Below are positions 940 to 24,198 of a DNA stretch of 32,000 nucleotides, in pieces. The stretch lies in assembly GCA_022646745.1 (NCBI GenBank), contig CP060262.1, positions 3,090,001 to 3,122,000 of the forward strand. Direction: 5' to 3'. The notes beneath the pieces are model-generated. The model was not told the origin of the DNA, ran no database searches, and saw only the letters and a list, made by a program, of their open reading frames with translations. A program made the translations under genes and the position numbers. Positions within the stretch are counted from its first letter, which is position 1, and each line of letters begins with the position of its first letter. The DNA comes from Planctomycetales bacterium. GTDB taxonomy: Bacteria > 4484-113 > JAFGCY01.

Positions 940-2280
940 CTAGTCGAACTTGATGGATGTCTCGAAGCCCCGGACCTTGACGTAGTCTCCTTCCTCAAGG
1001 CCCTCAAGCACGATGATGTCGTAGTAGTCAGTGTCGCCGAGCTTGACCTCAACCTCCTCGGTTGCGGCCTTCTCGCTCGTGATGTCCTCGCCCTCCTTCA
1101 GGCGGAAGACCATGTTCGTGTCCGGCTTCTCACCCGCGCGCGTGGCGCCGAGCGGGATCAGCAGGACATCCTTCTTCACGTCGGCCTCGATCTTCACACT
1201 GGCGGTCATGTTGCCGAGCAGCAGGCCCTCATTGTTGTCAACCTCGATGATCACCACGAAGTTGATCAGACCGCTGCCTGCCTGCACACCCTGCGGGTAG
1301 ATGTTCGTCACCTTGCCGCTGAACTCCTGCTCGCGGAAGGCGTCGACCTGCACGGTGGCAGTCTGGCCGACCTTGATCTTGCCGATGTCGATCTCGTCCA
1401 CGTATGTGCGCACCTTGATGCGGCTCAGGTCGGCGACCTTGATGATCGTGTTGCCTCCGCTGAATGAGGAGTTGATGCTGATCACGCTGTCACCGATGTC
1501 CAGCAGCTTCTCCAGCACGATGCCGCTGATCGGGGAGGCGATTTCGCTGTCCCCGAGCTGCTTGCGTGCTTCCGCCAGCTGGACGCCGGCGGCGTCATAG
1601 CTCAGCTTGGCGAGGCTGATGTTGTTGCTGTTGCTTCCCTCATCGAAGGCGCGCAGGTTCTCCTCAGCGAGGGACAGGGAAGCCTCGCCATTGGCAACAG
1701 CCGTGCGCATGCTGATCAGCTGGTTGCTGGCGTTGTCATATTCCTGCTGGGTGGCCCAGTCCTTCTCGTAGAGCGAGCGAATTCGCTCAAAGCTGTCTAT
1801 CTGTGTCTGGAGGTTGCTTTTGGCGTTGTCCAGGCTGTTGCGGGCATTGGTGAGCTGGGTCTCGAGGCTGGCCCGGGTGGTCTCGCTGTTGGCGTTGCGG
1901 GCCTCGTCATAGCGCAGCTGCGCCTGCTTGAGCACGATCTGCTGCTGGTCAACGACGAGTTGCTGGTTGCGCTGGTCGAGCCGGCAGATCACGTCACCGG
2001 CCTGGATCATGTCACCTTCCTCGACGAAGAACTCCTCGATGCGGCCGGTGGCCTCACTCTTGACTTCGATGTCGGTGACGGGCTCTGTGGTACCGGTGGC
2101 CTCGACGATGATCTTCAGGTCACCACGCCGGGCCTGCTCGAAGTATTCGGTGGATTCCTCTGAGTCCTTCTTTTCACCGCTGCTGATGAAGCCCTTGCCA
2201 TCCTTCTGCTTGATGACGATCGCGGCCGCGACGCCCAGCAGCAAAAGGACGAGCACAATGATTCCAACCCTGCGCCACAT
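940..2280 (-). CDS. HlyD/MacA-family periplasmic adaptor (membrane fusion protein) of an efflux ABC transporter
   Basis: 446-aa ORF with an N-terminal TM anchor (IIVLVLLLLGVAAAIVI). Lipoyl-like motif EVKSEATGRIEEFFVEEGDMIQAGDVICRLD, a long coiled-coil hairpin region and a C-terminal beta-barrel region. GGAGGAAG lies upstream of the ATG. Its stop is 15 nt upstream of the permease start. Confidence 0.85.
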   Translation of the reverse strand: MWRRVGIIVLVLLLLGVAAAIVIKQKDGKGFISSGEKKDSEESTEYFEQARRGDLKIIVEATGTTEPVTDIEVKSEATGRIEEFFVEEGDMIQAGDVICRLDQRNQQLVVDQQQIVLKQAQLRYDEARNANSETTRASLETQLTNARNSLDNAKSNLQTQIDSFERIRSLYEKDWATQQEYDNASNQLISMRTAVANGEASLSLAEENLRAFDEGSNSNNISLAKLSYDAAGVQLAEARKQLGDSEIASPISGIVLEKLLDIGDSVISINSSFSGGNTIIKVADLSRIKVRTYVDEIDIGKIKVGQTATVQVDAFREQEFSGKVTNIYPQGVQAGSGLINFVVIIEVDNNEGLLLGNMTASVKIEADVKKDVLLIPLGATRAGEKPDTNMVFRLKEGEDITSEKAATEEVEVKLGDTDYYDIIVLEGLEEGDYVKVRGFETSIKFD

Positions 2281-2633: not shown

Positions 2634-3332
2634 TCAGCTCAGGTTGCCAAGTCGCTGGAACAACTGCCAGATGCCGGTGATGACCAGCATGCACAGCAAG
2701 AGCATCGCAACGCTGGCAATGATGCCCTGGCTGCGTTCCGCCTTGAGGAAGTGCCTCAGGCCCAGTGCCAGCAGGACCAGGCTCCAGATGCCAAAGATGT
2801 CCAGGTAGCTGGCGGCAACCCAGTTGAATTCAAGCGGATGCCAGTTGCTGGCGATCCAGCTGACCGGCCCGATGCTGAGTCCGCGGAACTGCAGCGGTGC
2901 TTCCAGCACCTGCGGAATCATTGCGGGGTGCAGCAGTTCAAGGCAGAGCCGGCCAAGGAATGTACCAAGTACGAAAGGCAGCATTCCGTAGGCTGTCCAG
3001 TGCAGGAAGTCGCTGTAGGAGCGCGGGATGCCGAGCAGCCGGAAGAACAGCCAGCACAGCCCGGCAAAGGCGGCGTTCATCAGCAGGGTGAGGGGGATGA
3101 AACCGATTAATACTCCGAGCGGCACCAGCCAGGCTGCACTGCCTTCGCGCGGATTGCCCGCCACCTGCAGCATGACAGGGCTACCCACGATCTCCGCCAG
3201 GCTGAGCAGCAGCCATTGCCAGAGCAGTGCAAACAGCAGCGATCGCCTGTCAGCAAGCTGTTGCCATGTCAATACGGGCCGCACCATCAGGTGCCATGGC
3301 TGGGCTGCTGCGAGGATGGTTTCAGAAGCCAA
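2634..3332 (-). CDS. Polytopic membrane protein, Yip1-domain-like
   Basis: 232-aa ORF with about 5 hydrophobic segments. The N-terminal region (PWHLMVRPVLTWQQL) resembles the Yip1/DUF1282 N-terminus. Starts 13 nt after the NifU-like stop. The family call is from general resemblance only. Confidence 0.45.
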   Translation of the reverse strand: MASETILAAAQPWHLMVRPVLTWQQLADRRSLLFALLWQWLLLSLAEIVGSPVMLQVAGNPREGSAAWLVPLGVLIGFIPLTLLMNAAFAGLCWLFFRLLGIPRSYSDFLHWTAYGMLPFVLGTFLGRLCLELLHPAMIPQVLEAPLQFRGLSIGPVSWIASNWHPLEFNWVAASYLDIFGIWSLVLLALGLRHFLKAERSQGIIASVAMLLLCMLVITGIWQLFQRLGNLS

Positions 3333-3345
3333 TTGGCTGCCTGCC

Positions 3346-3711
3346 TCAGTCGATGGTGATCAGCTCACCGAACTCGGGGATTTCCTTCTTGATTGCCGTT
3401 TCCACACCCATCTTCATGTGCACGGTGGAGATGGAACAACTCTGGCAGGCCCCCATCAGCCTGATCAGTGCATTGTTGTCCTCGATTGCAACCAGTTCCA
3501 GGTCGCCGCCATCCATCTGCAGGAAGGGGCGGACCTTTTCCAGGGCGGCCTTGAGGCGGGTTTCAAAATCCTCCTCGGCACCTCGCAGGGGGCCGGCACA
3601 GCCACAGCTCGGCCCGCAGGGCTCCACTGCACGGTTGTAGTCGGTCTGCGCACGCGCCGCAGCGATTTCGTCCAGATGCTGGTCGTTCACCTTGCTCATG
3701 CCTGTTGTCAC
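3346..3711 (-). CDS. NifU/Nfu-like Fe-S cluster protein
   Basis: The C-terminal half, KVRPFLQMDGGDLELVAIEDNNALIRLMGACQSCSISTVHMKMGVETAIKKEIPE, matches the NifU C-terminal (Nfu) fold with a CxxC pair. The N-terminal part has an extra CGPSCGC Cys cluster. Start is ambiguous: GTG at 3711 or ATG at 3699. Confidence 0.7.
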   Translation of the reverse strand: MTTGMSKVNDQHLDEIAAARAQTDYNRAVEPCGPSCGCAGPLRGAEEDFETRLKAALEKVRPFLQMDGGDLELVAIEDNNALIRLMGACQSCSISTVHMKMGVETAIKKEIPEFGELITID

Positions 3712-3717
3712 GGCTCC

Positions 3718-4494
3718 CTAGATAAGCTTACGTCTGACGAGGATGACCCTGCCGAGGATCTCCACCTCATCCGGGTACTTGAGGACCTGCGGACGGTAGT
3801 TGTGGTTCGCCGGCTGCAGGATAACCGAGTCATTCTCGAAGTACACCTTCTTTACCGTGGTCTGGCGACGGTTAACCTGCACGACGGCGATATCACCGTT
3901 GTTAACCTGGCTGGCCGGACTGACGATCAGGGTGTCCCCGTCAAGGATACCAGCCTCCAGCATGCTGTCACCCTGCACAATCAGGCCGAAGCTGTTCGGG
4001 TCAAACATCATTTCTTCTTCAGAGAGCACCAGCTTCTCAACGTCGGCATGCGCCTCGACCACGTTCGCATCCTTCAGCAGGCCGGCGGGTACGGTGTCAT
4101 AGACGGGCATCGCGCGGCGGGCTGTGGCTACGGCTGAGGAGCCATTGCTGCCGGCAGGCTTGCCCTGAATACCCGAGATCAGCTGCTGCAGCGCATGGGT
4201 GGTGGGATCGTTGCTGCTGGGCTCGCTGGGAGTGGACTTGACGAAATCCTCACTGAGGATGCCGCTTGTCACCACCAGTTCGTCATAGGGGAACTGCAGG
4301 ATCTCACTGAAGCGCTTGAGGATCTTGGGGCTCGGACGTCGCTCACCATTCTCAATACGTGAGAGGTAACTGTTGTTTATTCCTGAGGCATCCGCCAGAT
4401 CAAACTGACTCATGCCACGACGAAGGCGCAGGTTCCTCAGCAGAGTACCGATCTCTGCATAAGGTTTGCCCTCGTTGCTTGTGATCTTGGGCAT
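3718..4494 (-). CDS. LexA-like autocleavable repressor with an XRE-type HTH N-domain and an S24 peptidase C-domain
   Basis: N-terminus LRNLRLRRGMSQFDLADASGINNSYLSRIENGERRPS is an HTH_3/XRE motif. C-terminus has GLIVQGDSMLEAGILDGDTLIV (catalytic Ser) and TTVKKVYFE (catalytic Lys), typical of S24 LexA/CI. AGGAG lies 7 nt before the ATG. Confidence 0.8.
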   Translation of the reverse strand: MPKITSNEGKPYAEIGTLLRNLRLRRGMSQFDLADASGINNSYLSRIENGERRPSPKILKRFSEILQFPYDELVVTSGILSEDFVKSTPSEPSSNDPTTHALQQLISGIQGKPAGSNGSSAVATARRAMPVYDTVPAGLLKDANVVEAHADVEKLVLSEEEMMFDPNSFGLIVQGDSMLEAGILDGDTLIVSPASQVNNGDIAVVQVNRRQTTVKKVYFENDSVILQPANHNYRPQVLKYPDEVEILGRVILVRRKLI

Positions 4495-4722: not shown

Positions 4723-5631
4723 TCAGGGTTTTGACTTTTCGGCGCGCTGCCTTGCCCGGCGTTCCTGGCGGGATTCCGCTCCACCAAATCCGCTGCCGCG
4801 ATTCTCAACTTCGCGCCGCGCCGCATCCCATTTGCGCAGCTGTGTGTAGGCCCAGATGCACACGAGTATGAGGACAATGTCAACGATCTGTGAATATGTC
4901 AACGTGATGCTGCCAAACAAGGGGATCCTGTGCTGCTCAGACACATGGCGGAACGGATCCTCGATGGTGGTCCGCAGCAGGCTGTAGCAGAACACGAAGG
5001 TGATGTAGTTGGCACCGCGGGGAAGGACCTTGTCAATGTATATCTTGCGCCAGACAACGTAGCAGACGAAGAATGTGATCACGCCGACCAGCAGCCCGTA
5101 CAGCTCCGTCGGGTGGCGCAGGATGATGTCCTCCTGGCTGGCGCCGGGCATGCGGTGGTATTCGTCGTAAGGAAAGTTCATTGCCCAGGGCCCATCCCAC
5201 TTGAAGCCGAGGATGTCGCCGTTCATGAAGTTGCCGATGCGGACCAGGATCACGCCGATGGCAACTCCTGGAGCGAAGCTGTCCATCACCTCGATGAAGT
5301 TGATCTTGTGCCGCCTGAAGTAGAAATAGGCTGCAATCACACCCGCAATGATTCCACCATGGAAGGAGAGGCCACCGTGGTCAACGCGCAGGATCTCCTC
5401 GGGATGGGCCACGAAGTCACTGATGTTCGTCAGTACATAGACGAGGCGAGCACCGCTTATGCCGGCCAGGATGATCCAGACTAGTCCGTCCCATATCAGG
5501 TCGCCGGGCCTGCCGATCTTCTTGAGCAGCTGGGCACCGATGTAGCTGCCCAATAGCATCGAGATCGCCATCATGATGCCGTACCAGCGGATCTGCAGGT
5601 TGTCGGTTATTGCAAATGCAATCGGGTCCAT
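4723..5631 (-). CDS. lgt: Prolipoprotein diacylglyceryl transferase
   Basis: 302-aa polytopic ORF. N-terminus IRWYGIMMAISMLLG, then GARLVYVL and HGGLSFHGGIIAGV, typical Lgt signatures. GAGGAAG RBS. Confidence 0.85.
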   Translation of the reverse strand: MDPIAFAITDNLQIRWYGIMMAISMLLGSYIGAQLLKKIGRPGDLIWDGLVWIILAGISGARLVYVLTNISDFVAHPEEILRVDHGGLSFHGGIIAGVIAAYFYFRRHKINFIEVMDSFAPGVAIGVILVRIGNFMNGDILGFKWDGPWAMNFPYDEYHRMPGASQEDIILRHPTELYGLLVGVITFFVCYVVWRKIYIDKVLPRGANYITFVFCYSLLRTTIEDPFRHVSEQHRIPLFGSITLTYSQIVDIVLILVCIWAYTQLRKWDAARREVENRGSGFGGAESRQERRARQRAEKSKP

Positions 5632-8616: not shown

Positions 8617-11025
8617 ATGCGCATCTGCAAGCCGCTGCTGGCATTGCTGCTGTTGCTCATCTGTGCAACGGCCGGTAACGCCGCGGGTGATCCCTACCTC
8701 GGCGTCGGGCACGAGCCAAGTTCCGACCCGCCAGGGTTGCTGATCAATGTCGTGCCGGGCAGTCCGGCTGACAGGGCGGGGCTGAGGAGTGGTGACGTGA
8801 TCACGGCCGTCGATGGCCACCAGATGGCGGATGCGCCGGATGGCAAGTACGATGCCGTCTTGCGCGAGGCACTGGTCGGCAGGGAACTTGGCGACAGCCT
8901 GTTGTTCAGCATCCACCGCAGCATTCCGTCCGTTGTGTTGCATGATGCAGCTGGTGACGCGGTCAATGATTTCCCGCTAGACGAACTGCGGCCACGCATT
9001 GACGGCCTGCAGGACGGGCAGAGCCTCAGGCTTGAAGCCAGCAGGATTCCGGAGGAGCTTGAGATCAGTGTTGTGCTCGGACCCCGGCCGGACACGCTAG
9101 GCGAGCCTTTCCCGGCAAATGATGAACTTCCGTGCAGGGTCGACGACCTGCGTCCGGGAATCAAGCAATTCAGGGATGAATTGATTGCCAGGGCTGGCAT
9201 CGCTGCGGACTGTGAGGACCTGGCGATGCGGCTGGACCGGCGCGCAACTCCTGATGACGGATACCGCTTCCAGCGCACCGTCTACCTGCTGCGCGACGGT
9301 TTCAAGGGTGAACCCGTCACCCGGGCCATCACGGGCAAGCTGACCGAAAGCATGGTGGCCGGCATCAGTGGCTACAGCCAGATCCAGTACACCAGCGCGG
9401 AACTGATGGATCTCTACGATCAGGACTTCCCGCAGCTGGCTGACAACAAGGATGGCACGCTTGACGATGACCTGCAGCTGCTGAAGCAGACGCTGGAGGA
9501 CAGTGATGCGCTGGTCCGCAGGGCCTTTGCCGGATTCAGTGAGGAAGAACTGACATTCCTGGACCGCCAGCGCGCTGAGCTGACAGAGGCCTTCCGCCAG
9601 TGGCATTACATCGACAGTGAGGACAGCAATGCCCGGCGGGTGGCTGACAACCTGCGCCTGATCGAACTTGCAAAGCGCATAGACTATGCCAGCCTGCAGC
9701 AGGCCCAACTGAAACTGAGCAGCCTGGCGCAGATCAACTTCCTCAAGCGCCTGGAGCAGGAGCTGCTGGCCTCCTATGCTGGCAATCTTGCCGACGATGA
9801 GCTGCTGCGGATGGAGACTGCCGCAGGTGACATCGTTGTCAATGGCACGGGCCGCAGCTGGCAGCGCAAGGATGATGCAGTACTGCGTATCGACCTCGGT
9901 GGCGACGACTTCTACACCAATGCGGCGGGCAGTGCCACAGGCATCTCCCATCCCGTCGGCGTGCTGATTGAATTCGGAGGCAACGATGCATATGAATCCA
10001 CTACGCAGCACTGCCAGGGCAGTGGTTCAATGGGCTGTGGCCTTCTGATCGACATGTCGGGGAACGACCAGTACATTGGCCTGCAGTGGGCCCAGGGCTG
10101 CGCCTTCCTCGGCTGCGGTGCACTCGTAGACTACAGCGGGAATGACATCTACCGCGGCGAGGAGCTCTGCCAGGCGGCGGCGATATTCGGCAGCGGCATC
10201 ATCTTCGACATATCCGGCAATGACCGCTTTGAGGCACAGCAGAAAAGCCAGGCCTTCGGCGGGGCGCATGGGATTGGCCTGCTGCTTGACGCGGAAGGAC
10301 ACGACTACCGCTATGCCAAGGGCAAGTACCCGACAGGCTATGGCGACGCCGGCATTTTCGACTCCTGGAGCCAGGGCTGCGCGCAGGGATTCCGTAACCG
10401 GGCCTCCGGTGGAATCGCGGGCATTGTCGATCTTGAGGGTGAGGACTACAACGAGGCCGGCAACTTCAGCCAGGGCGGCGGCTACTACTTTGGCTATGGC
10501 TTCTTCCACGATGTCGGCCAGCAGGATGACCACTACATCGGCAGCCGCTACAACCAGGGCTTCTGCGCCCACCAGGCGGTCGGCGTGTTCCTCGAGGAAG
10601 GTGGCAACGACTGGTATCAGACCCGCCAGAGTGTGTCACAGGGACTGGCCTGGGATGAATGCAGCACGGTGTTCATCGACTACCTCGGCAACGACCGCTA
10701 TGAAGGCGGCGGCGGGTTCTCCCAGGGAGCCAGTGCGCACAACGCGGTCTGCCTGATGTGGGACATGAATGGCGACGACGTCTATGACTATCCCGCCGGC
10801 CAGGCCCGGGCCGGTGGCAATGATTACCATGGAGGCACTTCGCTTTCACTGTTCATCGATGCCGGTGGCGGCAATGACAGCTACAACTCAAAGGATGGCG
10901 CAAACGACAAGGTCAGTGGCTGGCCGGCCCATGGATTCTTCGCTGACCTGCCGGGTTCACTGGCAGATGCGCTGCTGGACCAGGCCTGGCAGCAGCTCTG
11001 GCAGGACCCTCCAGCCGCAGAATGA
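8617..11025 (+). CDS. Secreted PDZ-domain protein with a C-terminal array of GNDxY repeats (function unknown)
   Basis: Signal peptide MRICKPLLALLLLLICATAGNAAG. PDZ-like GLLINVVPGSPADRAGLRSGDVITAVDG. An alpha-helical middle region, then about 12 repeats (see the repeat feature). Confidence 0.8.
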   Translation: MRICKPLLALLLLLICATAGNAAGDPYLGVGHEPSSDPPGLLINVVPGSPADRAGLRSGDVITAVDGHQMADAPDGKYDAVLREALVGRELGDSLLFSIHRSIPSVVLHDAAGDAVNDFPLDELRPRIDGLQDGQSLRLEASRIPEELEISVVLGPRPDTLGEPFPANDELPCRVDDLRPGIKQFRDELIARAGIAADCEDLAMRLDRRATPDDGYRFQRTVYLLRDGFKGEPVTRAITGKLTESMVAGISGYSQIQYTSAELMDLYDQDFPQLADNKDGTLDDDLQLLKQTLEDSDALVRRAFAGFSEEELTFLDRQRAELTEAFRQWHYIDSEDSNARRVADNLRLIELAKRIDYASLQQAQLKLSSLAQINFLKRLEQELLASYAGNLADDELLRMETAAGDIVVNGTGRSWQRKDDAVLRIDLGGDDFYTNAAGSATGISHPVGVLIEFGGNDAYESTTQHCQGSGSMGCGLLIDMSGNDQYIGLQWAQGCAFLGCGALVDYSGNDIYRGEELCQAAAIFGSGIIFDISGNDRFEAQQKSQAFGGAHGIGLLLDAEGHDYRYAKGKYPTGYGDAGIFDSWSQGCAQGFRNRASGGIAGIVDLEGEDYNEAGNFSQGGGYYFGYGFFHDVGQQDDHYIGSRYNQGFCAHQAVGVFLEEGGNDWYQTRQSVSQGLAWDECSTVFIDYLGNDRYEGGGGFSQGASAHNAVCLMWDMNGDDVYDYPAGQARAGGNDYHGGTSLSLFIDAGGGNDSYNSKDGANDKVSGWPAHGFFADLPGSLADALLDQAWQQLWQDPPAAE
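9874..10911 (+). repeat. Protein-level tandem repeats, period about 26-28 aa, consensus [SC]QG-x(5-7)-G-h-h-h-D-x-x-G-N-D-x-Y
   Basis: G(N/D/H/E)D-x-(Y/F) motifs occur at aa 429, 455, 482, 508, 534, 561, 608, 636, 663, 691, 719, 734 and 752 of the 802-aa product. Examples: GGNDAY, SGNDQY, SGNDIY, SGNDRF, EGHDYRY, EGEDYN, QQDDHY, GGNDWY, LGNDRY, NGDDVY, GGNDSY. Confidence 0.8.
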
Positions 11026-11064
11026 TTTCCAGTGCCGTCCTGTGGGCTTTGCTATCATTTCTGC

Positions 11065-11331
11065 ATGGACCACGACCTCTTCCTGCATCTCTGTGGGCTG
11101 GCCAGGCTGCGCCTTGATGAGCGCGAGGCAGCTGACTTCGAGCGCAAGTTCAACAGCATGCTAAAGATGGTGGACAGCCTGAACCAGTGGGAACCGCAGG
11201 ATAGCAAGCTGGCCGGCATCGATGGCGGCCTGCAGCTTCGTCCTGACAAGGTTGTCGAATATGTGTGGCCGGAGGGCACGGTGCACGATTACCGCGTTCC
11301 AACCATCATCGACTTCGAGGGTGATGGCTGA
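11065..11331 (+). CDS. gatC: Asp/Glu-tRNA amidotransferase subunit C
   Basis: MDHDLFLHLCGLARLRLDEREAADFERKFNSMLKMVDSL fits the GatC pattern. The stop overlaps the gatA ATG (TGATG). Start taken at the internal ATG 11065 rather than the track's 11032. Confidence 0.8.
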   Translation: MDHDLFLHLCGLARLRLDEREAADFERKFNSMLKMVDSLNQWEPQDSKLAGIDGGLQLRPDKVVEYVWPEGTVHDYRVPTIIDFEGDG

Positions 11332-12818
11332 TGCGTGAGCTGCTTGCGCGCACGGCGCATGAACTGCTGGCTGATGTCAGCAGCGGCGAGATTGACCATA
11401 ATGAACTGCAGGAAGCCCAGTACGCGTTTGCGCGTGAAATTGATGGTGAACTGAATAACTTCACGGCCTGGGATGAAGTGGTGGAAAGCCAGGGCTGGGA
11501 CCTCGACCTGAGCCCGGACAGGATGCAGACCTTCAGCCACATGCCTTTTGCCGCCAAGGACCTGTTTGCCACGAAGGGACTTAGCACTACGTCAGGCAGC
11601 AACATCCTCAAGGGGTATGAGCCAAGCTTCGATGCCAGCATCGTGGCCCACCTGCGCCAGGAAAAGAACCACCTGATGGGCAAGACCAACATGGACGAGT
11701 TCGCGATGGGGAGCTCGGGCGAGAACTCGGCCTATGGCCCGAGCCGAAATCCATGGGACCTGGCTCGTGTGGCCGGCGGCAGCAGTTCCGGCAGCGCGAG
11801 CGCGGTGGCTGCCTGCCAGAGCTTCATGGCGCTTGGCACCGATACCGGGGGCAGCATCCGCATCCCGGCAAGCTTCTGTGGGGTGGTCGGCTACCGACCG
11901 ACCTACGGCCTGCTCAGCCGCTATGGCATGGTGGCCTACAGCAGCAGCTGTGACCAGGCTGGCACCTTCACGCGCTGCACGCTGGATGCGGCGCTGGCAA
12001 TGAACACGATGAGCCATCCTGACCCACTGGACAGCACCTGCCGGGTCACGGAGCGGATTGACTACTACGCCGATGCCCGGAAGCCGATCCACTGGAACAA
12101 GCTGCGCGTGGGCGTGATCAGCCAGTTCATGGATCCGGAGCGAGTTGACAATGCAGTGCTTGCCAACTGCCAGCGCTCCATTGATATCCTGCGGGAAGCA
12201 GGTGCTGAGATAATCGAACTGGACTTCAGCATCGCACAGTACTGCATACCGGCTTACTACGTGATCACCGCGGCTGAGTGCAGCAGTAACCTCGCGCGCT
12301 ATGACGGCGTGCGCTTCGGCGACGAGCCACAGGGTGATGATTTGCTGGAGCGTTACCTGGATGTCAGGTCCCGCGGCTTTGGCGAGGAAGTCAAACGCCG
12401 CATTCTGCTTGGGACATACGTTCTCAGCAGCGGGTACTTCGATGCCTACTACAACCGGGCCCGGGCGATGCGCGGCGAGATAGCCCGCACGATGTCCGAG
12501 ATGTTCCGCAAGGTGGACGTGATCGTCTGCCCGACCAGCCCGAATGTGGCGTTTGGCATAGGGGAAAAGGCTGACGACCCGGTGGCAATGTACATGTCCG
12601 ACCTGTTCACGGTGTTTGTCAACCTGGCCGGGCTGTGCGGAGTGAGCATGCCCAACGGCTTTGCCGATTCTGACGGCAGCAGCTTGCCGACATCCATCCA
12701 GTTCGTTTGCCCCGGATTCCACGACAGCCTGCTGCTGAGGATCTGTTCGCAGTTCGAGGAACTGAGTGCATGGCGGTTTACGCCGCCGGCCTGGATCACG
12801 GAGAAGCTCGGAGCGTGA
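11331..12818 (+). CDS. gatA: Asp/Glu-tRNA amidotransferase subunit A
   Basis: 495 aa. Amidase signature GGSSSGSASAVAA ... LGTDTGGSIRIPASFCG. GatC lies immediately upstream. Confidence 0.93.
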   Translation: MRELLARTAHELLADVSSGEIDHNELQEAQYAFAREIDGELNNFTAWDEVVESQGWDLDLSPDRMQTFSHMPFAAKDLFATKGLSTTSGSNILKGYEPSFDASIVAHLRQEKNHLMGKTNMDEFAMGSSGENSAYGPSRNPWDLARVAGGSSSGSASAVAACQSFMALGTDTGGSIRIPASFCGVVGYRPTYGLLSRYGMVAYSSSCDQAGTFTRCTLDAALAMNTMSHPDPLDSTCRVTERIDYYADARKPIHWNKLRVGVISQFMDPERVDNAVLANCQRSIDILREAGAEIIELDFSIAQYCIPAYYVITAAECSSNLARYDGVRFGDEPQGDDLLERYLDVRSRGFGEEVKRRILLGTYVLSSGYFDAYYNRARAMRGEIARTMSEMFRKVDVIVCPTSPNVAFGIGEKADDPVAMYMSDLFTVFVNLAGLCGVSMPNGFADSDGSSLPTSIQFVCPGFHDSLLLRICSQFEELSAWRFTPPAWITEKLGA

Positions 12819-13483
12819 GTGCAGGCAGCACAGCCGTTCCCGGTGTGCGACAGCAGGTCGACGCTATCATCCCCGCATTTGATGAGGGCCCGCGCGTGCT
12901 GGCCGTTGCCAGGGTGGCGCTCGAGAGTGAACTGTTCGCGCGCGTGATCGTGGTTGATGATGGCAGCCGCGATGACACCGCTGCAAGGGTGGAGGCTGAA
13001 CCGGGGCTTGAGCTGGTGAAACACGAGCGCAACCGCGGCAAGAGCCAGGCGATGCACAGCGGTTTCCTGGCCAGCAGCGCTCCCGTGATCTGCTTCCTCG
13101 ATGCCGACCTGCTGCATGTGAACGCGGGGCACCTGCGAGCGCTGATCGAACCCGTGCAGTACGGGCACAACCAGGCCAGCCTCGCGATGTTCACCGGGGG
13201 ACGGACCCTGACGAGCCTGGCGCAGAAGATATCTCCCCTGATCAGTGGACAGCGCTGCCTGCAACGCCAGCTGCTGGACAGCTTCGAGGACTGGGATAGC
13301 CGATTCGGTGTTGAGACCTCCCTCAATGAGCACCTTGAGTCACTGGGGGTTGCACAGCTGGTGGTGGAATGGCCGGGAGCCGCACAGGTGATGAAGGAAG
13401 AGAAGCGCGGCTGCCTCGCCGGATTTGCCGCGCGGCTGGGAATGTACCGTGACATCGCGGCGAGCAAGATGAGAAGGCACTGA
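12815..13483 (+). CDS. Family-2 glycosyltransferase (short, about 222 aa)
   Basis: IIPAFDEGPRVL ... VIVVDDGSRDDT ... NRGKSQAM ... FLDADL (DxD). The GTG at 12815 overlaps the gatA stop (GTGA). The in-frame ATG at 12770 is an alternative start. Confidence 0.75.
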   Translation: MSAGSTAVPGVRQQVDAIIPAFDEGPRVLAVARVALESELFARVIVVDDGSRDDTAARVEAEPGLELVKHERNRGKSQAMHSGFLASSAPVICFLDADLLHVNAGHLRALIEPVQYGHNQASLAMFTGGRTLTSLAQKISPLISGQRCLQRQLLDSFEDWDSRFGVETSLNEHLESLGVAQLVVEWPGAAQVMKEEKRGCLAGFAARLGMYRDIAASKMRRH

Positions 13484-15966: not shown

Positions 15967-16039
15967 GGGGGTATAGCTCAGCTGGTAGAGCGCATCGTTC
16001 GCATCGATGAGGCCAGGGGTTCGAATCCCCTTACCTCCA
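15967..16039 (+). tRNA. tRNA-Ala (anticodon CGC)
   Basis: Folded by hand. Acceptor GGGGGTA/TACCTCC with the G3:U70 Ala identity pair. D stem GCTC/GAGC. Anticodon stem CATCG/CGATG with loop TTCGCAT (anticodon CGC). T arm AGGGG-TTCGAAT-CCCCT. Discriminator A. CCA is not encoded. Confidence 0.95.
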
Positions 16040-16056
16040 GATTCCCGGGACATCCA

Positions 16057-16089
16057 GGCCCCCATCATGCATGGGGGCCTTTTCTTTTC
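16057..16089 (+). terminator. Rho-independent terminator after tRNA-Ala
   Basis: GGCCCCCAT-catgc-ATGGGGGCC stem-loop followed by TTTTCTTTTC. Confidence 0.85.
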
Positions 16090-16108
16090 AACCTCTCCGA
16101 TGCATGCG

Positions 16109-16144
16109 CAGAAAACGCAGAGTCCCCGAACCAGGCGGGGACTC
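16109..16144 (-). terminator. Rho-independent terminator ending the micro-ORF pair
   Basis: On the minus strand: GAGTCCCCG-cctggtt-CGGGGACTC followed by TGCGTTTTCTG, about 34 nt after the stop of the 50-aa ORF. Confidence 0.75.
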
Positions 16145-16177
16145 TGATCTGTTTGCGGCCGGCTGGATGGCCGTGGT

Positions 16178-16330
16178 TCAGAACATGTTAATGAGGGCCA
16201 GTGTAGCGTCATGGATGTAATGACCGACCTGGCCGATGAAGCCGATAACGGCTGCGATGGCGCCGCCGATGGCATTGCCGATGCTTACTCCGAGTTGTAC
16301 GAAACCCTGTTCAAATGCGTCGAAATTCAT
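16178..16330 (-). CDS. Micro-ORF B, 50 aa, hydrophobic glycine-zipper peptide (unannotated)
   Basis: Hand translation: MNFDAFEQGFVQLGVSIGNAIGGAIAAVIGFIGQVGHYIHDATLALINMF. GAGGTG sits 6 nt upstream of the ATG. Below the 60-aa track cutoff. Repeated GxxxG spacing (G14, G18, G22; G30, G33, G36). No Lys or Arg. Confidence 0.7.
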   Translation of the reverse strand: MNFDAFEQGFVQLGVSIGNAIGGAIAAVIGFIGQVGHYIHDATLALINMF

Positions 16331-16379
16331 GATGTTCACCTCTTTGGATTGATATCGGTTGGAATGGACTGTCGCTTGA

Positions 16380-16538
16380 TCAGAACATCAAGGGCCAGCC
16401 AAGGTCACTGAGGGCTGCGGCGTAGTTGAAGTCGTATGCTTCCTGGGCATCGATCTTCGCCGCATCATCCGTAGCAGGACGGATCTCGGCACTGTCGGGA
16501 ATCTCAATCAGTTTCCTGATGTAATCCAGAATGTTCAT
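16380..16538 (-). CDS. Micro-ORF A, 52 aa, acidic soluble-looking peptide (unannotated)
   Basis: Hand translation: MNILDYIRKLIEIPDSAEIRPATDDAAKIDAQEAYDFNYAAALSDLGWPLMF. GAGGTG sits 6 nt upstream of the ATG. The initiation region GAGGTGAAC-N3-ATGAA and the terminal codons ATG TTC TGA are the same as in micro-ORF B. Confidence 0.65.
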   Translation of the reverse strand: MNILDYIRKLIEIPDSAEIRPATDDAAKIDAQEAYDFNYAAALSDLGWPLMF

Positions 16539-16760
16539 GTCGTTCACCTCATTCGTTTATTTGGTTGAGGCTTCCTGATTGCCTGAACCATTCTTGTTAC
16601 CCGCTGGTTCAGGACGATAAACAGTAAACTGTCTAAAATTCGAAATATCTAATTGTAGAGCAACTGCCTGCAATAACTGCATGATTGAAAAGTATCAGGC
16701 AAGGTGCGCCCGGTTTGTGATGGAAAGCGACCTGTAAGTGGTGCAGTGTGCAGAAGAAGT

Positions 16761-17507
16761 CTAGTAACTGATTCCGAAGTAAAGCAGAATGAATGATATT
16801 GAATTGGTCAGCCCATGCGCAATGATGCTGACCCACAGGTTCCGCTTGGACAGGAGATAGGCCGAACCGAGTATCAGTCCGACCAGGCCTGTGCTGATCA
16901 TGCCAGGCAGGTTCTGGTAGGCGTGGATCAGGGCAAACAGGAATGAACTGATGAGCAGGCCGACAATCCAGCCTGTACGTGATTCGTTGAACAGCTTCGA
17001 AATCCTGCCGATCAGGAATCCACGCCAGATCAGTTCCTCCCCGAATCCGGCAGTGGTCCAGGAAACGGCCAGCATCAGGAACAACCTGTTCAGGTCCTGG
17101 TATGCAGTCTGGTGCCTGCTCAGGTCGGGTTCCTGCAGACCGGTCGCGACAAAGATGGCCCCCAGCAGGACTGCCATAAGCTTGATGACTGCCACTACTG
17201 CAATCGCCAGCAGGATGGTGCGGGGCCAGCTGTCCGGTCTTGCCAGTCCCAGTTCAGCCGGCTTGCCACCTTTCAGCAACCATAGGGCGAGGATCACGAG
17301 CATTGCCAGCGGAATGGCAATAAATGCAAGCAGCTCAGGATTAACGCCGGCGGGGAAGGCTATCCCGACGGCTGCCAGAAGTCTTGGCAAAAGGTCTATG
17401 AAATTGGCTGCAAGCACCAAGAGGATGGTGATGCTGATGCCCAGTATGGACTTGTCAAGGAATCTCCCCATGGAGAATCCAGCCCTGTTTGCGCTCAGAC
17501 TGCTCAT
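16761..17507 (-). CDS. CPBP (CAAX protease / bacteriocin-processing, Abi) family intramembrane glutamic metalloprotease
   Basis: All three CPBP motifs are present: EELIWRGFL (EExxxR), FALIHAYQ (FxxxH) and HGLTN (HxxxN). About 7 TM segments. Start set at the ATG 17507 (MSSLSANRAG...) with AGGAG 5 nt upstream. The track's TTG at 17669 lies inside a terminator U-tract. Confidence 0.85.
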   Translation of the reverse strand: MSSLSANRAGFSMGRFLDKSILGISITILLVLAANFIDLLPRLLAAVGIAFPAGVNPELLAFIAIPLAMLVILALWLLKGGKPAELGLARPDSWPRTILLAIAVVAVIKLMAVLLGAIFVATGLQEPDLSRHQTAYQDLNRLFLMLAVSWTTAGFGEELIWRGFLIGRISKLFNESRTGWIVGLLISSFLFALIHAYQNLPGMISTGLVGLILGSAYLLSKRNLWVSIIAHGLTNSISFILLYFGISY

Positions 17508-17656
17508 GTCCACTCCTGTGCCGATCCGGTCTTGCATGTATGGATCAGGCAGCATTCCGGTCCATCTGCTTCTATCTTTCTCCAGGCTTTGGAAGAACTC
17601 GGAATAGTGGGGAGGACGACGCTGGCAGTTTTTCAGTTTCAACGCTTGACTCAACT

Positions 17657-17700
17657 GAGAAAAAAACAAAGCCCCCGTCCCACACGGAGGCTTTTGTCTT
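17657..17700 (-). terminator. Orphan, bidirectional-looking intrinsic terminator between the CPBP gene and yigZ
   Basis: AAAGCCCCCG-tcccaca-CGGAGGCTTT. On the minus strand the single mismatch becomes a G:U pair and is followed by TTGTTTTTTTCTC. On the plus strand it is followed by TTTTGTCTT. No annotated gene ends here on either strand. Confidence 0.55.
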
Positions 17701-17856
17701 GAACTGGTTTTTGATCCCTTACCGGACCATATCCGATACCCTGCAGGACGAGCGCTAAAACCTGCTTATTCAAACATTCCGGGTGAATTCCTGAAGATTG
17801 GAATGAGTCTCCGTTATCGATCCATAAAACGCTGAACCCACTGGGGCTAGAATCAA

Positions 17857-18474
17857 GTGGTGGCTGATTCCAAGGAACGGTATCTGATCCCGGCTGAAAC
17901 GCATCGCGTTGAACAGGAGATCCAGCGCAGCCGCTTCATTGCCACCATCGCCCACTGCTCGACACGTGAGGAAGCGGAATCCTTCCTGCGTGCAATACGA
18001 CAGGAATTCCCGGATGCCACACATAACTGCTGGGCCTTCCAGCTTGGAGCTCCCGGCAGCCAGCAGCATATCGGCATGAGTGATGACGGCGAACCACATG
18101 GCACGGCCGGCCGGCCAATGCTCACCATCCTGACTCACTGCGGCATAGGGGAGATTGCTGCAGTCGTCACGCGCTACTTCGGTGGAACCAAGCTTGGCAC
18201 CGGTGGCTTGGCCAGGGCTTACAGCGGTAGTGTGAAGCTGGCCCTGGAAAGCCTGCCGACAACTGAACGGATCGACTGGTGCCAGCTGGCAGTGACAATC
18301 GACTACCCGATCCTTGACCAGTTCCGCCTGCTGCTGACCCCGCATGAGGCAGTCACGGAATCCGAGCAATTCACTGACAGGGTGCGCTACATCCTGCAAC
18401 TGCCCGCTGAAAATCTGGCGGCCTTCAGGCGTGCAGTTACTGAGCTCACCAGCGGCCGTGCAAGTTTCAAATGA
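17857..18474 (+). CDS. yigZ: IMPACT/YigZ (UPF0029) family protein
   Basis: YLIPAETHRVEQEIQRSRFIATIAH ... HNCWAF ... SDDGEPHGTAGRPML ... VVTRYFGGTKLGTGGLARAY aligns by eye with E. coli YigZ along its length. GTG start. Confidence 0.85.
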   Translation: MVADSKERYLIPAETHRVEQEIQRSRFIATIAHCSTREEAESFLRAIRQEFPDATHNCWAFQLGAPGSQQHIGMSDDGEPHGTAGRPMLTILTHCGIGEIAAVVTRYFGGTKLGTGGLARAYSGSVKLALESLPTTERIDWCQLAVTIDYPILDQFRLLLTPHEAVTESEQFTDRVRYILQLPAENLAAFRRAVTELTSGRASFK

Positions 18475-18564
18475 GAGCACCACCCATTCCGAGAGATGAG
18501 CGGCATTTGTCGTACCTCTTCACAGCCAAGTCGTCTGGTTCACATGAACTCGGATTCATTTACC

Positions 18565-21500
18565 CTACTGTTCAAATGCCGTGAACATTCTCATGTTCTG
18601 ATTGACTTCATTTGAGTACAGGATACAAATTTGTCCATTGCGTTCGGTAATAGCCAACTCACCATTGCCCAAGCTGAACAAGTCAGGGAATATGTAAGGA
18701 TCAACTACTTCAATTTCCCATCCATTCACAGTCTGGGATGCCAGTTTCAGTGCAGCATACCCATTCACAATTGATACTCCACTGATGTAAGCAAGTACTG
18801 CCTCTCCATTCGCACGAACCATCGACGCAGCGCTCCGCTTGTTATGGCAATGTTTATGGGAGTAATTTGTGGGTAATTCCTGGCAAGACTCTACGACTGA
18901 CTGTGTTTCTCCGGAAACGGTAAAGGCGGTTGCCACAATACTAGAATCAGAAACAGTGATCCCACTAGTGGATCGCTCGGAAACGAATACTAGCGGTGAG
19001 TATACTGTATCTACATTGCTGGATCCGTCAAAAAGCACTGCACCCAGCCAGCTATTGTCGTTGTAACTGAACTGCAAAGGTATACTGCTAGTTACGACAC
19101 TTGGGGTACTGTAGTCGATCTCACTGTAATACACTCCCAGCGGATTATTGTATCCGGCGCGCAACCCCAGTGGTGTGACAATAAAGTCCTCGTTGTATGC
19201 ATTGTTGAATGGGAATACGCTAATCTGGTGACTAATCCAAGTCCCGAACTGCAGTTGCTCTCTGAGGATGCTGTCGCTAAGTGAATCGACAACTGAAAAG
19301 ATGTGGCTGTCAGGACCTTCAGTTCTTGTAAACCGCGCATACGAGAAATTTCCCTCTGTATGGCTGGCAGGATCTTCCAATATGGATACGTTCCCGTTAA
19401 CATCAATCGTAGCATGTTGATTATAGGCAAGGATGTTCGGAGAAGTGCTGCCTCTGAAATATGTCAGGTAATACTTGTTATCATACATCCCTAGACTGAG
19501 ATCATTCCAATAGTCTGCCTGAGCATCAATGCTGGAAGCCACGTTGAAAGTAGCAAACTGATTACTGTTCGGAGCGGTCTCGCGGAAAATGTTCAACACA
19601 AGTTCTTCAGGTTCATTGTTGTTGTACTCCCACGACACTCCGGCAAACAATCTTCCTTGCTCATCCACACCAATAGCACCATATTCCATATTACCCCACT
19701 TACTTTCCTGTAACAGCTGAAAATCCCACTCTAATCTATCGATAATCACCCTGGAAGGATGCGTATAAACTGTAGGATGATTGGGTAGTATCAATGCACA
19801 ATAGATATCACAAACCCCGTCAGCACCTGCGTAGTTGTCCACGTCAAATGCAATGTTTAAATCGAAATTTGGTGATTCCTGAATTGAAAATGGGACAGGT
19901 TGAGGTGATGTGATCTGCCAAGTTACTCCGTTGGAATCAGTACAGAATAACTGTAATCTATACAAGTTGGTAATACTTGAAAGTAGTCCTGACGGAAGAT
20001 TTCCCTTTAATTGCACTTCGAAATCATCTGTAAAGACTTCCATTTCGCTTGGATTCGCCGGATTCCAGTCTGGTGATACAAGATCCACCCAAGGTAGAGC
20101 ATTGCTCGCATTAATGATTGGAATAACGGTGTCGCCCGGTCCTGCTGGTGAATATGGCAGCGGTACAGGAAGTCCTAAAGCATGCGCGGGTAGATCATTG
20201 CTGCTGCCCCAGTACTTATATCTTCCTGTTTGCAGGAGATGTGTCCGGATGTCCGTTGCCGTTATTCCGGGTGAATAAGCCTGAATCATAGAAACAAGAG
20301 CTGCAACATGTGGAGTAGCAGCTGAAGTTCCATTGAATCCATCATTCGGATCGAATCCCGTTGATGATTCATACAATGGTAATAACAGTGGGATTAGTTT
20401 CTCGTAACCGCCATACGCTGATACTGTCACGGCTCTGGTAAAGTTTCCATAACCAGGTGGGTTAAATGTATCTTCAACCATATAGTTAGAATATGGTGTC
20501 CTGTCATCTGTCCAATCTACAGCTGCAACTGAAATAATTTGATCAGTGTCTACCGCAAAAGCGGCAGGCCATCTGCCATGCACATGCAAATTATTTGCTG
20601 GATCTTCTTCATATATTACGATAGCTTGATCGGGTTTATGTCCCTCGTTTCCCGTTCCGCAAACAAGAACAAAGGAAGGATCCGTTTGAATTGTTGCGAG
20701 CATTAACTCGAAAGGACTGGTAGGGCCATCGTAATAAGCATCCTGAGCCCAACTCATACTGGCTACATATGCATTCGCCCACTGCCTGATACTAAATGCT
20801 CTGAGAGTTGCTTCACAAAGATGATATCCAAGTTCAGTGTTGTATTCTTGATTAGGATCGAATTCTTGTGATTGAGGAATTGTTGGATATGATTTGAACG
20901 GAAAAACTCGACCATATGGAAGCATGCCACAAGTTCCTTGTGGATCTGAATAATCCTGACCCCTGCCAGAGATTATAGCACAACAGTTTGTGCCATGATA
21001 ATCATGATTTCTACCTGCAAAATCATTAAAGTATTCGTAAGGTGTGCATGACCAACCAGAGGGAAAGTCAGGATCCTGAAGGAAAATTCCATAGGCAATA
21101 TCCCAAAAATCTAGGGTGGAGCTATTTGGAGACTCAACGGGCATCCATACAGAAGGCCATTCCTCATTTTGATTCCAGTTTGGCCAGATAAAAGCTGGAT
21201 CCTCAGAGGTAGGAAGATCAGGGTGAGAACCAGGACCTGGATTATCACCACAAACGCCCGTATCAACTACAAACACCCCCGCTGCTATACCGGTCTTATG
21301 TGGGTATGTTACCGGAAAATTCCCATTTGGCCACATGGGTGGGAACCAACATGAATGTAACTGATGGAAATTCATTTGAAATATTGAATATTCTTCCGTA
21401 TGATCCCAGAATTGTGGTCCGTTATCTTCAACATAAATTCCAGTACCTATTGTTCCAATGTCTACAAGCGGATCAGCACTCCTTGGTTCATACGTAGTCG

Positions 21501-22251: not shown

Positions 22252-22289
22252 TGTATGACCTGTTTAAATGATTATTCACTTCACATGAA

Positions 22290-22319
22290 AATATATCACA
22301 CAGGATAAGTGGTTGTCAA
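22290..22319 (-). promoter_or_regulatory. Near-consensus sigma70-type promoter of the S8 lipoprotein gene
   Basis: Minus strand: TTGACA (22319..22314), 18-nt spacer, TGa-TATATT (extended -10, 22298..22290). An A/T-rich tract (AAAATTATTTTTTTTC) lies upstream in UP-element position. About 38 nt upstream of the ATG. Confidence 0.6.
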
Positions 22320-22524
22320 GAAAAAAATAATTTTCTTTCTACTGAGAGCAAGTCGCATTTGACTATGCGTTGCATATTTGCATACAAAGGGTAAGTATTG
22401 GTTTCTTGGGAATGGTCTAGATATCCTCTAATTTTCGGGTCAGAAGGATGAAATGGATTTGTTTGACGCCAGGTTCACCGTTCCAAAGTTGCCTGAAGCG
22501 ACATAGAATTTTGAGTTAGTTTTA

Positions 22525-24087: not shown

Positions 24088-24198
24088 GCCTTCCTCTGTA
24101 ACGGGCCCCTTGGGCCAGGGACTGATTATATACCCACGTGCCGGCGGGCTTGGTTCAAGTTGGCAGCGTGATTGTGGCAATTATCCGGAATCGTTCAA

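Follow-up and report, generated by a model that had tools for sequence, protein, structure and literature searches.

This study describes a predicted envelope protein of a Planctomycetales bacterium in which a PDZ domain is followed by a helical domain and a long, repetitive beta-solenoid. Its gene lies in a window of 32,000 nucleotides, the window being the whole stretch of DNA that was analysed (GenBank assembly GCA_022646745.1, contig CP060262.1, positions 3,090,001 to 3,122,000 of the forward strand). The window had been interpreted before from its letters alone, in what is called here the sequence-only reading. By exact cluster look-up, the 802-amino-acid (aa) product is identical to the GenBank entries MCB1220925.1 and UNM07640.1, a 'PDZ domain-containing protein' of a Planctomycetales metagenome-assembled genome. 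The gene belongs to a co-directional string in the order recA, rny, the PDZ-solenoid gene, gatC, gatA, a GT2 glycosyltransferase gene, an NAD synthase gene, and a DUF502 gene, in which no terminator-like site was found before position 16056. The upstream neighbour is rny, whose product carries RNase_Y_N, KH, and HD domains. The downstream open reading frame (ORF; 11032-11331) matches PF02686 with 17.3 bits (E 0.0055), below the gathering score of 23, and probably encodes a GatC that has diverged and that starts at a later codon; the next gene, gatA, has an Amidase match of 5.6e-122. The sequence-only reading had placed the gene between rny and gatC; the rny side was confirmed, whereas gatC is weak by Pfam although it adjoins gatA. 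Because the string is co-directional, free of terminators, and made up of housekeeping genes, the setting fits chromosomal housekeeping rather than cargo. The earlier description of the gene as core genome is supported by this string and by orthologues that are chromosomal in many phyla, but synteny is not conserved. A search for a second copy of the solenoid gene within the window found none.

The architecture of the protein can be stated with high confidence: behind a signal peptide lie an HtrA-type PDZ domain, then an all-alpha domain, and finally a beta-solenoid of ~370 aa with 13 rungs, which makes four parts in all (Table 1). The N-terminus reads MRICK-PLLALLLLLICATAGNA followed by AGDPY, and the A-x-A/AGDPY junction is kept in close homologues. 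A hydrophobic-segment heuristic revealed signal-peptide-like N-termini in 42 of 43 gene-called family members, the lone exception being 5'-truncated, and several members have a lipobox-like L-x-x-C motif, including the orthologue of the cultured isolate Amphritea balenae (FLSAC). The protein is thus predicted, with high confidence, to be a Sec-exported envelope protein. The PDZ domain at aa 26-76 is matched by PF17820 (38.6 bits, gathering score 27; E 8.7e-10), PF13180 (32.9 bits, gathering score 27), and PF00595 (27.4 bits, gathering score 23.2), and contains a carboxylate-loop-like PPGLLI and the motif GSPAxxAGLRxGDVI. Sequence matches in the PDB are restricted to the PDZ segment (the PDZ domains of HhoA, HtrA2, and HtrA3). 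The Foldseek search of the full-length model against the PDB was likewise dominated by PDZ matches: ~145 columns were aligned to DegP, DegQ, HhoA, and CtpB, with a probability of 1.00 to DegP, DegQ, and HhoA, and the isolated HtrA PDZ of S. agalactiae (7l71) was aligned over 93 columns with a template modelling (TM) score (TMt) of 0.51 and a root-mean-square deviation of 3.8 Å. No protease domain (trypsin-like S1C or S41) and no protease Pfam match was found in the protein; the NCBIfam models TIGR02037 and TIGR00225 align over the PDZ segment only and score 28 and 19 bits, where the respective cut-offs are 416 and 219. The all-alpha domain carries the family motifs DLxxRL, [HR]-R-x-P228-[FL], AFxxLxxxE, and LAxKID, and was detected in 299 of the 354 solenoid members with enough room for it. 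Among 83 N-terminal regions, PDZ was found in 52 and no other Pfam family in any, and the profile of the all-alpha domain gave nothing below E 0.05 against the PDB. The sequence-only reading had proposed a secreted protein with a signal peptide, a PDZ domain, and a helical-looking region behind it, and all of these elements were recovered.

The C-terminal half of the protein is predicted with high confidence to form a beta-solenoid. Its rungs follow the pattern [VIL]-G-h-[LF]-h-D-x-x-G-[DN]-D-x-Y-x(6)-Q-G-x(5-6), and 'Q[GA]' occurs in 10 rungs of the window protein. The [DE]xxGxD anchors at aa 426, 452, 479, 505, 531, 558, 605, 660, 688, and 716 are separated by 26, 27, 26, 26, 27, 47, 55 (27 + 28), 28, and 28 residues; a manual layout adds D632 and D748 (turn one residue longer) and a degenerate last rung at D777, giving 13 rungs. 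The array is not perfectly regular, as a conserved 20-aa insertion occurs in rung 6 and a 4-aa insertion in rung 11. Autocorrelation of aa 415-790 (BLOSUM62, against 200 composition-preserving shuffles) showed peaks at lag 26 (z 4.5) and lag 28 (z 5.8); the harmonic appeared at lag 52 (z 3.3). The period of 26-28 residues named by the sequence-only reading was thereby reproduced; its ~12 repeats at aa 420-765 proved to be a real tandem array, but one of 13 rungs plus a partial rung 0, with different limits and with the two insertions. No tandem repeat was found at the DNA level, which indicates that the repeats are old and diverged and rules out a recent repeat expansion.

Structure prediction with AlphaFold2 (AF2) is consistent with this layout. 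The full-length model (43-sequence alignment) reached a predicted local distance difference test score (pLDDT) of 91.9 and a predicted TM score (pTM) of 0.91, and a model of the solenoid alone (aa 412-790), built on a different alignment of 13 sequences, reproduced the pattern with a pLDDT of 89.8 and a pTM of 0.90. A strictly regular strand-turn-strand pattern runs through aa 397-777 of the full model, with a pLDDT of ~90-98 across the rungs, and the DSSP strings of both models give each rung two long strands and one or two short strands or bridges. The disordered or non-repetitive structure that the sequence-only reading had named as evidence against itself was not seen. Ahead of the first complete rung lies the partial rung 0. 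In an alignment of 84 family sequences from more than 12 phyla, only ~25-30% identical overall, which also underlies the rung occupancies and the conserved patch described below, rung 0 has the consensus TxxGxIxxGGxGxNxY, an RTX-like nonapeptide in most homologues. It is almost canonical in one member (GGPGNDYY in P0041, aa ~266-275) and degenerate in the window protein (NGTGRSW). In the model, the solenoid is capped at both ends, by the alpha domain on one side and a short helix on the other, as expected of a soluble, non-polymerising solenoid.

Table 1. Features of the PDZ-solenoid gene, with positions in the protein and in the window
Feature	Residues (aa)	Window coordinates	Strand	Basis and remarks
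Whole gene	1-802	8617..11025	+	Intact ORF, 802 aa; ORF list; 100% match to P0001; exact cluster look-up
Predicted Sec-type signal peptide	1-22	8617..8682	+	MRICK and Leu-rich core; inferred cleavage between GNA and AGDPY; hydrophobic-segment heuristic
HtrA-type PDZ domain with beta extension	~26-155	8692..9081	+	Pfam, PDB sequence, Foldseek; DSSP strands 30-153
All-alpha domain	~165-395	9109..9801	+	Ten helices, aa 180-386 in AF2 DSSP; pLDDT mostly >90
Partial rung 0 / N-terminal entry strands	397-420	9805..9876	+	Strands E397-399, E405-409; 84-sequence consensus
Predicted 13-rung beta-solenoid	421-779	9877..10953	+	Rung layout, periodicity, occupancies, AF2 strands
Rung 6 20-aa insertion and return arm	566-599	10312..10413	+	AKGKYPTGYGDAGIFDSWSQGCAQGFRNRASGG; invariant Q586, G587, G591, R593, G598, G599
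Rung-specific, non-periodic conserved patch, Q-G side of rungs 6-11	583-740	10363..10836	+	Alignment columns
C-terminal capping helix	782-794	10960..10998	+	DSSP H782-794 in full model, H371-378 in solenoid-only model

Searches were performed to relate the solenoid to described families and structures. At E<=10, Pfam never covered the solenoid in the whole protein, 13 diverse solenoid sequences, or 19 further full-length members; at this threshold PF00353 was absent from the full protein and the 13 solenoid sequences, and no Pfam beta-helix, PL, GH28, or CE8 model was found on the solenoid. NCBIfam gave nothing for the solenoid, either in the whole protein or in 13 members at E<=10, and a 375-position solenoid profile had no match to PDB sequences at E<=10. 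Foldseek searches with the solenoid-only model returned nothing at E<=1e-3 from the PDB or BFVD. After the top PDB structure, 3p4g, which is considered below, the PDB list contains Ag43, PL6 alginate lyases, the CyaA RTX block, CsgA, and pectin methylesterases at E>1, the matches to PL6, PL1, CE8, Ag43, and tailspike structures having E values of 1.3-9.8 and TM scores of 0.13-0.28. In BFVD, one uncharacterised protein (E 0.047) is followed by 'pectate lyase superfamily' viral tail proteins (E>=0.47). The source names of all named members, including RefSeq WP_124926319.1, are 'hypothetical protein' or 'PDZ domain-containing protein', and the literature search found nothing relevant on periplasmic proteins combining PDZ, beta-helix, and HEAT domains. 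The fold class is known, that of the beta-solenoids; the specific 26-28-residue repeat is undescribed, and the earlier remark that it belongs to no named repeat family agrees with these searches, which gave no confident match of the kind that the sequence-only reading had named as a second piece of counter-evidence. Beta-solenoids, RTX-like turns, and PDZ domains are known already. What is new is the repeat itself, a domain with a constant number of 13 rungs that carries a conserved patch, the pairing of this domain with a helical one for which no match was found, and how widely it is distributed.

A search of 1.84 billion representatives at 50% identity with the solenoid profile yielded 4,376 matches at E<=1e-3 and 2,551 at E<=1e-30. 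Among the matches listed, nearly all span profile positions ~1-370 in one stretch, and the solenoid measures 372-379 aa in most members. Since the matches run from end to end in this way, the solenoid module behaves as a single fixed-length domain and not as a repeat of variable copy number. Relatives are encoded in at least 565 stretches, with one genome per GTDB species, and hence in at least 565 GTDB species; the module is carried by more than 12 phyla, mostly diderm. The best 80 of these stretches include Planctomycetota, Eisenbacteria, Krumholzibacteriia, Latescibacterota, Gemmatimonadota, Verrucomicrobiota, and Victivallaceae, as well as Desulfobacterota, Bdellovibrio, Halobacteriovorax, Nitrospirota, Nitrospinota, Spirochaetia, and Bacteroidales; Proteobacteria are few among them (e.g., Amphritea balenae and Sulfitobacter). 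Related genomes come, among others, from a desert salt-flat soil, from groundwater, and from anammox bacteria (e.g., Brocadia). The PDZ domain is an exchangeable accessory: there is a PDZ-less class of ~645 aa, and in one subfamily C-terminal HEAT repeats (HEAT_2) occur in its place. In the large ~645-aa subfamily (e.g., Zixibacteria) and the HEAT subfamily, an N-terminal region of ~270 aa was undetected by the hidden Markov model of the PDZ-class helical domain, and this region may be a divergent or a different domain. In single members the solenoid module is fused to further domains: an AAT/C45 Ntn-hydrolase at the N-terminus and a PDZ domain in P0190; DUF4912, two PDZ domains, and LysM in P0067; and, in P0120, an N-terminal region that matches HEPN pEK499_p136 (7e-9). 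A link to the cell wall is hinted at by the fusions to LysM and to the hydrolase. The sequence-only reading had foreseen neither the size of the family nor the exchange of PDZ for other modules. The contexts of three looked-up orthologues had nothing in common with the window. At the locus of one orthologue (P0009), a 1085-aa protein with no Pfam match is encoded directly upstream on the same strand (L001 2603-5860; L002 352-3609); this protein is absent from the window.

The most regular part of each rung is its turn. Over 12 rungs in the 84 sequences, numbered from the first Asp as 0, the occupancies are G 51% at position -4, L/F 69% at -2, D 85% at 0, G/A/S 69% at +2 (G 35%, A 23%, S 11%), G 96% at +3, D/N 76% at +4, D 94% at +5, and Y 84% at +7; Gly-rich positions follow after +7, with a Gln near +14. 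In the RTX unit XUXGGXGXD, Ca2+ is ligated by Gly-5 and Gly-7 (both with positive phi) and by Asp-9, and the next U faces the core (Baumann's review, PMC6891781). A single-edge variant exists in region IV of MpIBP, where the rung XGTGND-XUXU-GGXUXG-XUX binds Ca2+ on one edge only (PMC6891781, PMC3492233). The segment G(+3)-[DN]-D(+5)-x-Y(+7) matches the second half of the RTX turn together with the in-phase hydrophobic residue, the equivalents of RTX Gly-7, Asp-9, and U being 96% G, 94% D, and 84% Y. Because Asp(0) and Asp(+5) are in phase with Leu(-2) and Tyr(+7), respectively, both are expected to point inward, and the two carboxylates of each rung probably face the corner of the coil. The solenoid is also very acidic, with a net charge of -32 and a composition of 18% Gly and 10% Asp. 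Given the inward Asp pair and this charge, a file of cations along one edge would be the most economical explanation, and it is proposed, with moderate confidence, that Ca2+ stabilises the solenoid at one RTX-like Asp/Gly turn per rung.

A second, non-periodic layer of conservation is superimposed on the repeat. Besides the six invariant residues of the rung 6 arm (Table 1), H652 and D680 are invariant in the 84 sequences, and F617, G620, G622, Y623, and R644 are conserved in at least 90%. The rung 6 insertion has the consensus A-x-G-x-x-P-x-x-Y-G-x-x-G-x-F-x-x-W-S-Q-G. In the rung layout, these residues stand a few positions past the Q-G in one rung after another and so form a stack on the side that faces away from the Asp turn. 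The fixed length, the conserved loop, and the invariant Arg, His, Asp, and Tyr favour a specific binding or catalytic groove over a mere spacer, and the patch of rungs 6-11 is regarded as a putative functional site.

A mechanism can be proposed on this basis. The chain would cross the inner membrane unfolded via Sec, and the solenoid would then fold in the periplasm, driven by cations. Each rung would contribute one tight turn, D-x-x-G-[DN]-D-x-Y, the second half of which would act as the Ca2+-ligating half of the turn of RTX proteins and of MpAFP region IV (MpAFP_RIV), so that a single file of ~12 Ca2+ along one edge may stabilise the very acidic coil; failing Ca2+, a ladder of hydrogen bonds between Asp and the backbone could do so. 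The Gly-rich Q-G side of rungs 6-11 (R593, F617, Y623, R644, H652, and D680 with the 20-aa loop) would be the working surface, a groove that may bind, and possibly process, an envelope ligand, although confidence in such a ligand is low. The PDZ domain, or the HEAT repeats in the sister architecture, would recruit or tether a protein partner, in the case of PDZ via the partner's C-terminus. As a whole, this explanation is given a probability of about 0.5. A wider version of it is tentative: the protein may represent a new class of Sec-exported beta-solenoids that combines Ca2+ at each 26-28-residue rung with a conserved catalytic or ligand groove, and thus an unrecognised envelope factor with a common yet undefined periplasmic task. 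Such a factor would be shared by the PVC and FCB groups, Desulfobacterota, Bdellovibrionota, Nitrospirota, and some Proteobacteria, and might, for example, process or chaperone an envelope polymer or a protein delivered by PDZ or HEAT.

Several results weigh against the Ca2+-stabilised solenoid with a working groove. At the equivalent of RTX Gly-5, which needs a positive phi angle, the residue varies (L 25%, R 11%, G 10%), and that of Gly-4 is replaced by Asp (85%); the former speaks against a canonical RTX turn. The sequence-only reading had likened the turn to those of RTX proteins, and this likeness holds for the second half, G-[ND]-D-x-aromatic, but not for Gly-5. The top structural match of the solenoid in the PDB, 3p4g, is the Ca2+-bound beta-helical antifreeze domain of Marinomonas primoryensis; as a one-sided Ca2+ beta-roll it would suit the proposed turn, but the match is not significant (E 0.27-3.7, probability <=0.30, TM 0.28-0.43). 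Finally, when the ORFs in the flanks of 84 loci were clustered all against all, none of the neighbour families recurred at more than six loci, and gene context gives no pointer to a pathway.

A less likely alternative is that the protein is an enzyme with a beta-helix fold that needs no metal and has an envelope polymer as its substrate, for example a polysaccharide lyase, hydrolase, epimerase, or peptidoglycan-active enzyme. The Asp ladder would then be purely structural and R593, R644, H652, D680, and Y623 would be catalytic. Invariant residues on consecutive rungs are indeed Arg, His, Asp, and Tyr, a mixture resembling that in the active-site grooves of beta-helices of the PL1, PL6, and AlgG types. 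Many entries of the weak Foldseek list are PL6 alginate lyases, RbmB, pectin methylesterases, or phage 'pectate lyase superfamily' proteins, but the PDB matches among them have E>1 and TM<=0.28, the best named phage match has E 0.47, and no Pfam beta-helix, PL, GH, or CE model was found at E<=10. The fusions of one member to LysM and of another to the Ntn-hydrolase (AAT/C45) would suit such an enzyme, whereas no polysaccharide or cell-wall genes recur beside the solenoid genes at the 84 loci. The periodic motif is also far more regular than in pectate-lyase-like helices, which have no repeating sequence motifs and need no metal ions for stability (PMC6891781).

Slightly less probable than an enzyme is a passive strut, spacer, or adhesin. 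The 13 rungs, at the ~4.8 Å rung spacing of RTX rolls (PMC6891781), would make a rigid rod of ~6 nm that sets the distance of the PDZ or HEAT modules from a membrane anchor or the cell surface but does not itself offer a specific site for a ligand. Such a rod would agree with the capping of the solenoid at both ends, the predicted lipoproteins among the orthologues, the exchangeable protein-binding modules, and the presence of Ag43 and the L. reuteri SRRP adhesin in the weak structural-match list. Many known beta-solenoids act as stalks. Stalk repeats, however, usually differ in copy number, whereas rung number and total length are almost fixed here, and rung-specific invariant polar residues with a conserved insertion loop are unexpected of a mere spacer.

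Very unlikely, by comparison, is a canonical RTX protein, that is, a substrate of a type I secretion system (T1SS) with a Ca2+ beta-roll. The G-[ND]-D-x-aromatic turn and the GGxGxNxY of rung 0 recall such proteins, and a HlyD-family membrane-fusion gene (940-2280, minus strand) and an OEP gene (22525-24180) occur elsewhere in the window. These efflux-type genes, however, are on the other strand at a distance of 6-11 kb and do not recur as neighbours; the window has no T1SS genes beside the solenoid gene, and none recur among the 84 loci. With a period of 26-28 rather than 9 or 18 residues, no PF00353 match, and a cleavable N-terminal signal peptide in place of a C-terminal signal, this candidate was ruled out, and the unconserved Gly-5 speaks against it as well. 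Just as improbable is an ice-binding or antifreeze domain like MpAFP_RIV, as suggested by 3p4g as best Foldseek match and by the single G-N-D turn per rung. Apart from the insignificance of that match, the Thr of xGTGND that builds the ice-binding array (PMC3492233) is replaced by G/A/S, and on this ground and that of the rung length, 26-28 against 19-21 residues, the candidate was rejected; nor do the salt-flat, groundwater, and Brocadia sources of related genomes suggest a cold-specific role. That the domain is a mere artefact of Gly/Asp composition, or that AlphaFold was over-confident on a low-complexity sequence, for which the Gly and Asp content might be cited, is the least probable reading and is effectively refuted by position-specific conservation of up to 94-96% across phyla, thousands of end-to-end homologues at E<1e-30, the agreement of two AF2 runs with different alignments, and a periodicity above composition-preserving shuffles.

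Further observations concern the rest of the window. The GT2 glycosyltransferase ORF (12707-13483, plus strand) overlaps the 3' end of gatA by ~110 nt as listed, and its true start probably lies further downstream. Between the HlyD-family gene and lgt (4723-5631, minus strand) lies an ORF of 369 aa (3028-4137, plus strand) that matched no Pfam family at E<=1e-5. In the region 15967-23000, a tRNA-Ala(CGC) at 15967-16039 is followed by strong terminator-like hairpins (16056-16146). Past these hairpins lies a stretch of lower GC content (0.41-0.55 versus ~0.60 elsewhere) with three ORFs on the minus strand: 16761-17669 encodes an intramembrane protease of Rce1/CPBP-like type, 17770-18483 a product of 236 aa that Pfam does not match, and 18565-22251 a subtilase S8 protein of 1227 aa. 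Beside the tRNA, this stretch looks like a horizontally acquired island; an att-like direct repeat next to tRNA-Ala was searched for and not found.

A domain of ~370 aa that occurs in thousands of clusters, hundreds of species, and more than a dozen phyla, with no family model, solved relative, or proper name, represents a sizeable annotation blind spot. If the Ca2+ assignment is true, the series of RTX-like Ca2+ turns would extend from the 9/18-residue rolls and the 19-residue roll of MpAFP to a wider, Sec-exported coil of 26-28 residues. The fixed length, the invariant Arg, His, and Asp, and the protein-binding modules that can be exchanged suggest that the domain has a specific and conserved role in the diderm envelope, and many of the carriers, including Planctomycetota and candidate phyla, have poorly understood envelopes. 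At present the solenoid is a well-defined domain of unknown function and not a solved mechanism.

Four known systems invite comparison. With the periplasmic PDZ proteases (HtrA/DegP/DegQ/DegS, Ctp/Prc), the protein shares a signal peptide followed by an HtrA-type PDZ with GSPAxxAGLxxGDxI; in contrast to them, it has no protease domain, and its N-terminal PDZ leads into novel alpha and beta-solenoid domains. The PbH1-type helices (PL1/PL6/GH28/CE8, Ag43-type passengers, and phage tailspikes) crowd the weak structural-neighbour list. Their rungs of 22-28 residues are similar in length to those described here, and like this solenoid they have rung-specific polar residues on consecutive rungs, which in these helices form enzyme active-site grooves. 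They differ in that their PDB matches stay at E>1 and TM<=0.28 and that no Pfam match links them to the solenoid, to which alone the sharp motif belongs. The RTX beta-roll (PF00353; AprA 1KAP, CyaA block V) is likewise a parallel beta-solenoid built of a Gly/Asp-rich tandem repeat. As in the solenoid, its turn closes with G-x-D and continues into x-U-x, where the hydrophobic residue is directed inward, the Asp is often preceded by Asn, and the acidic character would lead one to expect folding only after export from the cytoplasm (PMC6891781). However, the RTX roll makes two turns per 18 residues, whereas the solenoid makes one per 26-28-residue rung; the first half of the turn is G-G-x in the former and D-x-[GAS] here, with a second invariant Asp and no conserved Gly-5; and a C-terminal T1SS signal contrasts with an N-terminal Sec signal, a C-terminal capping helix, and no PF00353 match. 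MpAFP/MpIBP region IV (3p4g) likewise consists of thirteen rungs in one continuous, capped solenoid, in which each rung has a single x-G-x-G-N-D turn at one edge and runs back, Gly-rich and without binding, at the opposite edge. Its rungs have 19-21 residues, so only the G-N-D-x-U part is common to both, and its Thr/Asx ice-binding array has no counterpart here, the Thr equivalent being G, A, or S. Whereas MpAFP_RIV belongs to a 1.5-MDa T1SS adhesin, the module described here is part of a Sec-exported protein of 800 aa and has rung-specific invariant residues and an insertion loop as features of its own.

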